Part shown: positions 12,786-16,890 of the stretch, in pieces
Position numbering within the stretch: the first letter of the stretch is position 1
How the letters are laid out: each line of letters opens with the position of its first letter
From: an uncultured Planctomycetota bacterium
GTDB taxonomy: Bacteria; Planctomycetota; Planctomycetia; Isosphaerales; Isosphaeraceae
NCBI GenBank assembly: GCA_963845755.1
Contig: CAWJTV010000033.1
Location: 224,001-288,000, forward strand
DNA: 64,000 bases
Reading direction: 5' to 3'
Notes under the pieces: generated by a model
What the model was told of the DNA's origin: nothing
The model's database searches: none
Seen by the model: only the letters and a program-made list of their open reading frames with translations
Position numbers and translations under genes: made by a program

Positions 12786-13090
12786 CGGGACCTCCGATCA
12801 TGAGGCGTCGGACCCGCTCGTCCGATTGTCGGCGAGGCGGGGCGCGATGATCGCTTCGCCAGGAGAGCGGAAGGGAACGAAGGGGTCATTCACCTCGTAA
12901 CTATACGCATCTCGCGTGAACCGCTCCAGGTCGAGGAAAGCCCTCTCGGCGAAATAGTCCCGCCCATCCGCCGAACTCCTTGACAGGCGGTGTGGTTGCA
13001 GCCAGGATCAGGCCGGGGCGACCGCACCAGGCGGACGCGTATCGGCGGAGACGTTCTCCGCACCGCGGTTGGACTTGGCATCAGGGGTCG

Positions 13091-14228
13091 ATGGCGATGT
13101 TGATGACGGGGCTGTCGGGAAACGAGATCTACTGTCTGGCGCAGAAGGGATTTGACCCCGGGAACATCGTGGTGGGCAACAGCGTCTACTCGCTCGGGTT
13201 GTTGCGGGGTATCACCAGTGGGCTCAAGACGCTCTCGGGTGGGGAGATCGGCAGCATCACCCACCTCATCGTCAACGGCCGGCACGCCGCCATCAGCCGG
13301 CTGGAGAAGGAGGCCCAGGACGAAGGGGATCGGGGGCTGACCGGCGTCGCCTCCGAACTGCGGAAGATCGGGAATCTGATGGAGTTCCTCGCGATCGGCT
13401 CCTCCGTCAAGAGCAAGGCAGCCGCCGGCTCGTTCTTCTCGACGGCCTGCTCCGGGCAGGATCTGTTCTGTCAGATCGACTCGGGCTATGAACCCCGACA
13501 CTTCGTGATCGGCAACGTCGCCTACGCGTTGGGGGTCGCGCGGGATCTCGGGCGGGCTGAAGATGTTCGCCCGGCGCGGCGAGGTCAAGGAGTTCTCGGA
13601 CATGTACAACCACACGCGCCATCTCGCCCTGGAGCGGCTGGAGGCCGAGGCGGCCGAGCGCGGTTGCAACGCGGTGGTTGACGTCATCACCCGGATCATC
13701 CCGTTCGGGCCGGGAGTCCGGGAGATGCTCATGGTCGGCACCGGCTCGTACAACCCGGCGCTGGGGCAGCCGAAGGTGCCCTATACGTCCGAGCTGACCG
13801 GTGAAGAGCTCTGGAATCTGACCCAGTTGGGCTATGCGCCGCTGCGGCTCTTGCTGGGGACGAGCGTCTACGCGCTGGGGCTTGCCGGCGGCATCTCTGC
13901 ATTCTTCCAATCGTTCGGCCGGGGCGAGATCGATGAGGTCACCCGGCTGGTCTACGACGCCCGGGAGAACTGCCTCGACCACATCCGAATCGAGGCCCAG
14001 CAATTGAAGGCCGACGCGGTCATCGGCGTCAAGCTCTTCATCAACGAGCTGGGCTCGGGACTCGTCGAGGTGATGGCCATCGGCACGGGGATCCGCAAGC
14101 ACGCCGGCGTCTCGACCCAGAGCGATCAGCTCATCCCGCAGGCCATCACCCGCGATCGCGACACGTTCTTCGACCAGGCCCCGGCCGTGCCGGGAATGCC
14201 GCAACCCCGGAACCTCGAACGAGCCTGA
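13091..14228 (+). CDS. Multi-domain YbjQ/heavy-metal-binding family protein (frameshift near 13545)
   Basis: Three repeated units (GNSVYSLG / GNVAYALG / GTSVYALG, each ending in AIGS, MVGT or AIGT) across two ORFs. Confidence 0.85.
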
Positions 14229-14310
14229 CCCGATTCCCGAATCCGTCTTCATCCGGAATCCGGAATTGGGAATCGTGAATTCCTCTTGGGTTACGGCTGA
14301 AGTCGGACAT
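14228..14310. repeat. Degenerate heptamer-arm repeat, copy 3
   Basis: cccgattcccgaatcc...ggaattgggaatcg followed by ctcttgggttacggctgaagtcgg. Confidence 0.6.
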
Positions 14311-14366
14311 GCGGATTGCGTCGGACGAGCTCACCAGGGCAAACTCAAAGTTTTCGGGATTGACTG

Positions 14367-14395
14367 TTGATTGCCCGGGGTCGGGCGGATACATT
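14367..14395 (+). promoter_or_regulatory. Sigma70-type promoter
   Basis: TTGATT-N17-TACATT. Confidence 0.65.
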
Positions 14396-14399
14396 TGAG

Positions 14400-14675
14400 T
14401 TGTCGGTCGAGACATGACACACAGCATCGGCCGACTTTCGTGTGGGTCGCGCGAACGGCGCGACGGACTAGAGCCCGCCCCAGCTCGAGGCTGGTCTCTG
14501 GCTGGTCCGGGGAGGCTAGAACGAAAGGAGGTGATCGCGTGTGTAGTGATAACCAGGAGCGGCTCGCCTAACGGCAGCCGACGGGTTGCCCGTCGGGCAG
14601 CCGCATGCTTGACCATAACCTTACGGTTGGGATCGGCCAGGTTCGGGCCTCCGGGTTTCGAGCCTGGCCGGATCC
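14400..14675 (+). ncRNA. Candidate structured RNA or small-ORF transcript
   Basis: Serial hairpins downstream of the promoter, GAAAGGAGGTGATC at 14523-14536, a 10-codon ORF at 14539-14571 and a long terminal hairpin at 14630-14675. Confidence 0.5.
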
Positions 14676-14729
14676 TATGTGCTATAAGATCTTCTTGCCT
14701 TGGGTTTGCTGAACGGGAGACGGGCTCCA

Positions 14730-14846
14730 TTGGTTCGGACCTACGCGGGTGAGTACGGCCTGTTCTTTGACCGTGGCTGGTGGTGGTCCTGGGCGTTTAC
14801 CAGCTCCACGACAGGTCGCCGGGCCGAGGACGGAGTATCCCCCTGA
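14730..14846 (+). CDS. Aromatic amino acid attenuator leader peptide (38 aa)
   Basis: TTG start with GGGAG upstream; MVRTYAGEYGLFFDRGWWWSWAFTSSTTGRRAEDGVSP contains 2 Tyr, 3 Phe and 4 Trp; lies upstream of a terminator and DAHP synthase. Confidence 0.85.
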   Translation: MVRTYAGEYGLFFDRGWWWSWAFTSSTTGRRAEDGVSP

Positions 14847-14878
14847 CTCCCGACTCAACTTCTTGAGCATACACACCA

Positions 14879-14915
14879 AGCCCCGGGACCTCTCGACAGG
14901 TCCCGGGGCTTTTTT
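14879..14915 (+). terminator. Intrinsic terminator (attenuator)
   Basis: 13-bp stem agccccgggacct/aggtcccggggct, 6-nt loop and a T-tract. Confidence 0.9.
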
Positions 14916-14967: not shown

Positions 14968-15025
14968 GTAGGTCGGGCTTTCCAGCCTGACGCCCGGTCC
15001 TGTCAGGCGGGAAAGCCTGACCTAC
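14968..15025. repeat. GTAG-type REP doublet
   Basis: gtaggtcgggctttccagcctgac ... gtcaggcgggaaagcctgacctac, an imperfect inverted repeat. Confidence 0.8.
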
Positions 15026-15057: not shown

Positions 15058-16071
15058 GTGATCGTGGTCATGAAAGCGGACGCAACACCGGCGCAGATCG
15101 CGCACATGGCGGATCATATCGCCTCGCTGGGTTTCAAGCCCCAGGTGATCCACGGGACGCACCAGACGGTCATCGCGGCCCTGGGTGAAGAGCGGGCCGG
15201 TCTGACCGAGGCTCTCGAACCCGGCGAGGGCGTGGAGAAGGTCTTGCCGATCATGGCGCCGTACAAGCGTGCGTCGTCCGAGCTGAAGCGCGAGCGGACG
15301 ATGGTCAAGGCGCGGGGGCTGGAGGTCGGCGGCACGCGCGTGGCGGTGATCGCCGGCCCGTGCTCAGTCGAGGATGAGGAGCAGATCGTCGCGCTGGCGC
15401 GGAAGCTCAAGAGCCTGGGCGCCACCGGGCTGCGCGGCGGTGCGTTCAAGCCGCGGACCAGTCCGTACAGCTTCCAGGGTCACAAGGAGCTGGGGCTGAA
15501 GATGCTCGCCACGGCGCGGGCCGAGACCGGGCTGGCCATCGTCACGGAGGTCATGGCACCCGAGCATGTCCCGATGGTCGCGGAATATGCCGACGTCCTC
15601 CAGATCGGCGCACGCAACATGCAGAACTATCAGTTACTTCAAGCGGTCGGCGACTCGGGAAAACCCACCATGCTGAAGCGCGGGATGAGTGCCACGGTAG
15701 ACGAGTTCCTCCTGGCCGCCGAGTACATCCTCGACCGCGGCAACCCGCACGTGATGCTCTGCGAGCGCGGCATCCGCACGTATGAGGACCACACCCGATT
15801 CACGCTCCCGCTGGCGACGGTCCCCTACCTGCACGACAAGAGTCACCTGCCCGTGGTAGTCAACCCCTCGCATGGCACCGGCAAGGCGAAACTCGTCGCA
15901 CCGATGGCCAAGGCCGCGGTCGCCGCCGGGGCCGACGCGTTGATGGTCGAAGTCCACGACGACCCCGAGCACGCTGCTAGCGACGGCGCCCAGACCATCA
16001 CGCCGGCCGCGTTCAAGCAAATGGTCAACCAGTGCCGCCGAATCGCCGAGGCCGTCGATCGGACGATGTGA
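15058..16071 (+). CDS. aroF: 3-deoxy-7-phosphoheptulonate (DAHP) synthase, type I-beta with N-terminal regulatory domain
   Basis: [37 protein letters not shown] and LCERGIRT motifs. Confidence 0.95.
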
Positions 16072-16153
16072 TTCGCCAAGGTCGTTCGATTTGGGGTGGA
16101 ATGCAGGAAACGCAAAAGCCCGCGACCGACCGTCACGAAGCCAGGAAACGATC

Positions 16154-16399
16154 ATGCCGTTGGTGATTCCTGATGAGGCGCTGCGAGAGGCGGGCCTCAG
16201 CGAACGGGATGCGCTGGTGGAGTTCGACTGCCGGATATTTGCGGCCGAGAAGCTCACGCTCTGGTCGGCTTCGAAGCTCGCGGGGTTGAGCCGGGTCTCG
16301 TTTGAACAGGAGCTTTTCTCCCGCGGGATTCCCCTCTATCGGCCGGATCCCCACGATCTGGCCGAGGATCTCGCCGCGATGGATCAAGTGGGAGCCTGA
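16154..16399 (+). CDS. UPF0175 family protein (putative antitoxin)
   Basis: KLTLWSASKLAGLSRVSFEQELFSRGIP; directly upstream of a PIN-domain gene. Confidence 0.85.
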   Translation: MPLVIPDEALREAGLSERDALVEFDCRIFAAEKLTLWSASKLAGLSRVSFEQELFSRGIPLYRPDPHDLAEDLAAMDQVGA

Positions 16400-16401
16400 T
16401 C

Positions 16402-16890
16402 GTGGCTGTCGTCGTCAGCGACACCTCTCCGATTCGGGCGTTGGCGCATCGGGACCTGCTTGCGCTGCTCCCGGGGTTTTTTTCGCAAGTGCTGGTGCCT
16501 CCGGTTGTGGATGACGAGCTGAAGACGCCACCGGCAGGGCTGCCCCGTGTCGATGTCAGGGATCTTCGCTTCGTGACCATCCAGGCGCCACGCGATCGGG
16601 CGAAAGTAAAGGTGCTTCTTCGGGATCTTGATCCTGGCGAATCAGAAGCCCTGGCACTGGCCGTGGAGGTCGGTGTTTCGGCGGTCCTCATCGATGAGAG
16701 TGCCGGTCGGAGAATGGCGAGGCAACTCGGGCTGCTTCCGATCGGGGTTCTTGGTGTTCTGATCCGGGCCAAACCGCGCGGGCTGGTACCCGAGGTCGTT
16801 CCTCTCCTCGACCGTCTGAGAAGCGAGCTGGGCTTCTTCATCTCCGATCAGTTGCGGGCCGAAGTACAGCGCCTCGCCGGTGGGCCTTGA
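16402..16890 (+). CDS. DUF3368 PIN-domain protein (putative toxin)
   Basis: VVSDTSP, LDPGESEALALA, VLIDE and GVLGVLIRAK motifs. Confidence 0.88.
   Translation: MAVVVSDTSPIRALAHRDLLALLPGFFSQVLVPPVVDDELKTPPAGLPRVDVRDLRFVTIQAPRDRAKVKVLLRDLDPGESEALALAVEVGVSAVLIDESAGRRMARQLGLLPIGVLGVLIRAKPRGLVPEVVPLLDRLRSELGFFISDQLRAEVQRLAGGP

Follow-up and report, generated by a model that had tools for sequence, protein, structure and literature searches.

A probable ribosome-mediated transcription attenuator with Trp, Phe and Tyr codons upstream of the DAHP synthase gene in Planctomycetota

We analysed a window of 64,000 nucleotides from an uncultured planctomycete of the Isosphaeraceae, in which a gene for DAHP synthase, the first enzyme of aromatic amino-acid synthesis, is preceded by a short aromatic-rich ORF and an intrinsic terminator. 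The product of the gene, recognised as a DAHP synthase in the first-pass annotation of this DNA and confirmed by profile scores, has an N-terminal ferredoxin-like regulatory domain (PF18152). The REP-like palindrome 5' of aroF recurs many times in the genome, across many contigs, among the matches listed; matches to Rfam miRNA families fall on this palindrome and were rejected. At window positions 16091-16890, 3' of aroF, there is a UPF0175 and DUF3368 gene pair, which we take to be a probable toxin-antitoxin module, and positions 12980-14228 hold a YbjQ-like gene (PF01906), apparently on the minus strand, which overlaps plus-strand ORF calls that are also YbjQ-like. The features of the leader region and the gene are:

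14715..14719, plus strand: SD-like site (GGGAG) of the leader ORF, from sequence and conservation
14730..14846, plus strand: leader ORF of 38 codons with a TTG start, preceding the DAHP synthase gene
14756..14825, plus strand: predicted protector (1:2) hairpin over the aromatic codons, best conserved in its inner stem (14789-14792 with 14800-14803)
14796..14798, plus strand: Phe UUU as last regulatory codon, within the apical loop of the protector (14793-14799)
14813..14825, plus strand: segment 2, the 5' arm of the predicted antiterminator, pairing with 14879-14891
14878..14915, plus strand: intrinsic terminator (segments 3:4 and U tract), with segment 3 common to the antiterminator
14970..15023, no strand: REP-like palindromic repeat between terminator and aroF, outside the switch
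15058..16071, plus strand: DAHP synthase (aroF), family I, above the curated cut-offs of NF006421 and TIGR01361

The regulatory codons of the leader ORF are Y5, Y9, F12, F13, W17-19, W21 and F23, and residues 5-23 thus comprise two Tyr, three Phe and four Trp, or nine aromatic residues in 19 codons; translation of the ORF agrees with its earlier description. The frame stays open further 5', to a TTG at 14700, and the TTG at 14730 was taken as the start because GGGAG lies 10 nt before it and the start position in relatives agrees.

Loci containing aroF were drawn from 41 related genomes (30 loci) and from 80 named contigs, and 92 non-duplicate loci with at least 350 nt of upstream sequence were kept; four partial matches and two loci with short upstream sequence were skipped. 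Among the named relatives, the nearest belong to the Isosphaeraceae. Alignment of aroF upstream regions, which the first-pass annotation had proposed as a check, came out in its favour: the aromatic codons are kept at 76 of the 92 loci, as a cluster that ends in Phe and is followed by a stop codon, and the stems covary. The leader loci are related, and these counts overstate their independence. An ATG, GTG or TTG is found in the leader frame 17-27 codons 5' of the last Phe in 73 of the 76 leaders (18 and 12 in the other frames), and a stop codon falls within the leader core in only one (27 and 35 in the other frames). An SD-like word stands ahead of the start at 43 of 75 loci; with the search interval moved by 20 nt, the count is 3 of 75. 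These measures of start, stop and SD conservation are independent of the aromatic clusters on which the loci were anchored, whereas the count of aromatic codons itself (6.46 per 17 codons in the leader frame versus 0.54 and 2.26 in the others) is partly circular for that reason. Most of the starts are TTG or GTG, which we count against an attenuator. The kept start, SD and open frame suggest that the ORF is translated.

The terminator stem (14878-14911) has 14 pairs, is followed by a U tract and folds at -29.5 kcal/mol, and the terminator previously assigned to 14879-14915 is thus present. Covariation was assessed in an alignment (A1) of 71 of the 76 leaders, in which L023, L025 and L029 are misaligned in the 5' part; L015, L017, L022, L087 and L089 were omitted because of their length or wrongly cut ends, and the shuffle control ignores the kinship of the loci. 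For the terminator, 92.1% of cells are paired, 10 of 13 pairs and 49 cells are changed on both sides, and none of 500 shuffles scores as high on any measure. For the antiterminator the values are 80.6% of cells, 8 of 13 pairs and 42 cells, with 0-4 of 500 shuffles as high, and its register is the best among slides of -3 to +3. Since segment 3 is common to both, the antiterminator excludes the terminator. The protector (14757-14826, -34.1 kcal/mol) is more variable, in that its outer stems shift register between loci. Its inner stem, symmetric round the last Phe codon, has 68.8% of cells paired and 41 changed on both sides; no shuffle of 500 is as high on three measures, and 53 and 328 are on two others, the figure of 328 being that for the pair-count measure. 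The folding energy of the whole region is unremarkable alone (z -1.94; 8 of 200 shuffles as good).

All of the complementary stretches named in the first-pass annotation are present where it had placed them, and its core of leader, protector, antiterminator and terminator holds by conservation and covariation, although the pairing registers differ. Instead of an antiterminator with a bulged G, covariation prefers an unbulged register with two internal mismatches, and in the protector it prefers 14789-14792 with 14800-14803, closing the UUU loop, over 14777-14781 with 14799-14803. The alignments demonstrate the anatomy, the conservation of the frame and the covariation of both mutually exclusive helices.

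The last regulatory codon is UUU in all 76 anchored leaders, under an anchor pattern that also allowed UUC; L110, a leader missed by the anchor, has UAU at this position, and in distant families the last Phe codon is less strictly UUU. In the aroF genes of the same loci UUU accounts for 40 of 422 Phe codons, in the leaders for 61 of the 125 remaining ones, and in long ORFs of the source genome for 4714 of 45541 (10%). The codon that follows is ACC or ACG in 67 of the 76 leaders, the UUU itself is mostly unpaired (mean pairing probability 0.07-0.19), and its distance to segment 2 is 17 or 20 nt in 55 of the 76 (18 were unmatched by the pattern). UUU would be the last site at which a stalled ribosome leaves segment 2 free. 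The source genome has one tRNA-Phe anticodon, GAA, and the invariance of UUU may reflect wobble decoding by this tRNA, a requirement of the loop, or a pause signal. The dicodons at the last Phe are the same as those in Escherichia coli pheL (TTT-ACC) and pheM (TAC-TTT-AGC).

The region combines end-product codons, translation signals, an intrinsic terminator and an exclusive antiterminator, all features of classical attenuators, and a ribosome-mediated transcription attenuator very probably controls aroF, a reading drawn from sequence. From this anatomy we infer the stalling, the termination, the direction of the response and which amino acids count. In the proposed mechanism, RNA polymerase would make the leader RNA with a ribosome following behind. 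With ample charged aromatic tRNAs the ribosome would cross segment 2 to the stop codon and occupy the RNA between segments 2 and 3, so that segments 3 and 4 would pair and the U tract near 14915 would end transcription. If Trp- or Phe-tRNA (and probably, to a lesser degree, Tyr-tRNA) is scarce, the ribosome would stall at or before UUU and hold the protector open; segment 2, which lies 17 nt beyond UUU, would stay free and capture segment 3 before segment 4 exists, and aroF would be transcribed.

In the stalling model, folding was restricted to RNA lying 3' of the ribosome; an earlier version, in which RNA could pair across the ribosome, formed no antiterminator for a stall at any of the regulatory codons and was replaced. 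In the window the predicted antiterminator probability is 0.0 when no ribosome is present, rises to about 0.8 for an A site at W17-T24, and returns to 0 when the ribosome covers segment 2. Over 73 loci the contrast is weaker, with 0.52-0.54 without a ribosome versus 0.66-0.77 when stalled, so the effect of the protector is weak in the model. With both conformers folded, a further check suggested at the outset, the window sequence switches, and the loci as a group show little contrast. Because the ribosome-free value is already 0.52-0.54, the main control is probably exerted as the ribosome crosses segment 2, rather than by the protector. The switch must be kinetic, since at equilibrium the antiterminator region (-26.8) is less stable than the terminator (-29.5).

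Which amino acids are sensed is a separate question. The proposal that one leader reads all three aminoacyl-tRNA pools is plausible for the family, in that Trp and Phe occur within 17 codons in 76 of 76 leaders and Tyr in 67 of 76, but it is weak for Tyr in the source genome, since the two Tyr codons of the window leader lie 14 and 18 codons ahead of the last Phe and the predicted antiterminator there is small or unstable (0.00-0.02 for a stall at Y9; 0.82 or 0.02 at Y5, depending on the transcript end). Sensing of Trp and Phe is better supported than sensing of Tyr, and the chance that all three are sensed in the source genome is about even. A rival account, which we rate at somewhat under an even chance, keeps the same attenuator and makes it effectively a sensor of Trp and Phe, to which the Tyr codons add little, at least in the source lineage. 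Consistent with this, and with the stalls modelled at Y9 and Y5, Tyr is present in the last ten codons (-9..0) of only 43 of the 76 leaders, and in the available text of PMC11802643 the Phe-Tyr-Phe leader aroR of Corynebacterium glutamicum responds to Phe with no effect of Tyr supply. Yet Tyr codons are more frequent than in base shuffles, both at codons -18..-10 (46 observed versus 16.4 expected) and at codons -9..-1 (58 versus 8.7; Trp there is at 204 versus 31.4), the model permits the antiterminator at a Tyr codon in 60 of 69 Tyr-bearing loci, and Tyr stands immediately 5' of UUU in 17 of 76 leaders.

Explanations that dispense with tRNA charging fare much worse. Nascent-peptide arrest of the TnaC type, in which the peptide itself would stall the ribosome upon a free aromatic metabolite, could draw on the recurrence of W-x-F-T and of a GRRA-like stretch 3' of it, but in L007 and L059 that stretch, which forms the antiterminator arm, is read in a different frame; W, F and Y occur in freely varying order, and Phe is fixed as a codon, beyond the level of the residue. 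Moreover, stalling frees the antiterminator, and product-induced arrest would turn synthesis on when product is plentiful; we regard this explanation as very improbable. Slightly less credible still is a small Trp-rich peptide gene with a function of its own, followed by an ordinary terminator. Contigs from RNA libraries of relatives do span the leader in four of four runs (these are contigs and not proven transcripts), but the N-terminal half of the peptide varies across loci, the peptide has no match in Pfam or NCBIfam, the ORF is always immediately 5' of aroF, and the covarying antiterminator would be left unexplained. Of similarly slight probability is a ribosome-independent switch, in which a protein or ligand would bind the RNA at the UUU loop and the aromatic codons would be a by-product of conserved GU-rich sequence; this would suit a UUU that is invariant at the base level and unpaired but not starts, SD sites and an absence of stops that are frame-specific, nor W, F and Y codons that substitute for one another, nor the lack of any Rfam match in 10 loci besides an unrelated tmRNA.

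Upstream of the attenuator lies a second conserved element, with the following features:

14367..14395, plus strand: likely sigma-70-type promoter of the upstream RNA (-35 at 14367-14372, 17 nt, -10 at 14390-14395)
14402..14605, plus strand: structured RNA 'U', a conserved neighbour of the switch
14524-14536, plus strand: perfect 13-nt SD within U
14539-14571, plus strand: 10-codon ORF within U, with indels in multiples of three
14630..14675, plus strand: strong hairpin after U, with no U tract in the source genome
14680..14688, plus strand: TGCTATAAG, an extended -10 candidate, its pattern in 1 of 75 loci

The extended -10 that the first-pass annotation had suggested at 14680 is present in its letters, but the one locus with the pattern is the source locus, and we do not retain it. 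At the position of the upstream RNA promoter, TTGnnn-16/18-TAnnnT is found at 54 of 56 loci; the promoter at 14367..14395 has 8 of 12 consensus matches, below the scan threshold, and promoter scans of the upstream and leader region called none. Structured RNA U has four covarying hairpins and an invariant loop, and 24 of its 45 predicted pairs are changed on both sides in an alignment (A2) of 43 of 61 copies. It is single-copy in the source genome, its pattern is found in 11 of 14 other Isosphaeraceae genomes and in none of 46 genomes of other families, and it lies beside aroF in 12 of 12 cases, including those where the leader is absent. No Rfam family matches it at gathering level (there is a weak likeness to CC2171, E 0.065), and a literature search found no paper describing it. 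No terminator was called within 14200-14760, and because the closing hairpin of U is without a U tract, read-through into the leader is plausible. The promoter at 14367..14395 is thus a possible source of the leader transcript, and we lean weakly towards the leader transcript of Isosphaeraceae probably arising from the promoter of the upstream RNA. In L020-L023, from other families, a TTGAC-type promoter was seen by eye directly before the leader. Ten metatranscriptome runs contained just 5-6% of the words. RNA-library contigs of relatives (82% likeness) cover both U and the leader in four of four runs, with many on U, and in three of these runs (X1, X2 and X5) contigs join the leader with the 3' end of U; the contigs carry no strand, ends or level and are not informative on termination or abundance.

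Sixteen of the 92 loci are without an anchored core, of which L057 and L110 do have a leader when inspected and L063 has its terminator farther upstream; a group at 73-77% protein identity is without it. One lineage, at 73-75% AroF identity (L018, L097, L099-L102 and L104), has lost the aromatic leader, leaving the upstream RNA and a single hairpin immediately 5' of aroF; the leader called at L104 is a false anchor, its match falling within a hairpin that lies 68 nt 5' of aroF. In this lineage the small ORF of the upstream RNA gains a Trp codon through a compensatory base change in a helix. The aroF gene of L018 has one in-frame TGA.

Outside the family, in the same class, the leader is present at 8 of 11 loci. 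A phylum-wide sample gave an aromatic ORF with a similar terminator at 11 of 26 new loci, nine of these in six families outside the class; 14 of the 26, including all nine lowest-scoring, are without a leader, and one locus is incomplete. Cultured carriers include Singulisphaera acidiphila (L072), Singulisphaera sp. Ch08 (L055), Tundrisphaera lichenicola (L060), Aquisphaera insulae (L107) and Tautonia sp. (L091).

Within the source genome (14.3 Mb), 271 short ORFs have their end 35-130 nt ahead of a terminator-like site (441 such sites in all), and just one of these ORFs has at least five aromatic codons in 10, namely the leader ORF. At the thresholds used, leaders for His, Leu, Ile/Val/Leu, Thr/Ile or Lys were likewise looked for ahead of terminators throughout the genome, and none was found. 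No aromatic leader of this kind precedes either of the two aroF paralogues of the genome. An aroF paralogue at G000:C5:287243-288252 is split in two pieces; similar aroF splits are seen in several long-contig relatives and may be assembly errors. Near position 250100 of G000:C41, upstream of a prephenate dehydratase match, there is an aromatic-rich stretch that partly coincides with an AT-rich promoter-like region; it has no terminator and is probably due to chance. No TrpR was found in the source genome, which is 88% complete.

In E. coli, thrL (Thr and Ile) and ilvL (Ile, Leu and Val) are leaders that each sum several end products of a shared pathway; they resemble the planctomycete leader in having multiple inputs but serve other amino-acid families, and no sequence kinship is expected. 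The arrangement is also like that of E. coli trpL, pheL and pheM, with a cognate-codon ORF, protector, antiterminator and U-tract terminator (NC_000913.3 and the available text of PMC11802643 and PMC3082878), although those leaders have 14-15 codons with one amino acid dominant and belong to branch-specific or synthetase operons. Searches with the Rfam Trp_leader and Phe_leader families gave no match to E 5 in the window and none at gathering level in 10 loci.

Among DAHP synthase leaders, a close parallel is C. glutamicum aroR-aroF, where an aromatic leader peptide likewise precedes the gene and ribosome stalling raises its transcription (Neshat et al. 2014, as summarised in the available part of PMC11802643); the aroR leader was first listed in PMC4046766, judging from the text available of that paper. 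Compared by description, aroR is Phe-Tyr-Phe with no Trp, whereas the planctomycete leader is longer, SD-led and dominated by Trp; an aroR-type motif without Trp is not matched here, Trp being present in 76 of 76 cores. The uORFC-13-1 motif of Acholeplasma is a predicted uORF that precedes an intrinsic terminator and aroF and contains a U run encoding at least one Phe, known from 24 sequences that are confined to Acholeplasma and environmental DNA (PMC8632094, in its accessible portion). Again by description, in that portion of the paper, it differs from the planctomycete leader in being presented without Trp or Tyr input or an antiterminator. The supplement text of PMC8632094, as far as it was available, holds no aroF or planctomycete entry, and the accessible part of PMC4833913 mentions Planctomycetes only for leader-gene spacing. 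The first-pass annotation knew of no such attenuator described in Planctomycetota, and our literature searches, in which subscription papers were thinly covered, likewise found no leader-peptide attenuator in this phylum. The mechanism of attenuation is textbook, and leaders of DAHP synthase genes are already published; what would be new relative to the known aroF leaders is the predicted Trp input besides Phe and Tyr, and the planctomycete host.

A fuller picture would join these elements: a phylum-wide Trp/Phe/Tyr attenuator at the entry to the pathway, forming the only aromatic leader control of the genome, with UUU as a wobble-read last checkpoint or as a pause signal common to pheL and pheM, and fed in Isosphaeraceae by read-through from a structured small-ORF RNA to give a two-tier leader. 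We offer this combination tentatively and think it rather unlikely to hold in every part. The attenuator itself would imply close coupling of transcription and translation in planctomycete bacteria, and the fixed UUU provides a sharp way to ask whether codon identity or loop sequence counts in attenuators. With the attenuator, Planctomycetota would gain a defined, testable control of aromatic amino-acid synthesis.
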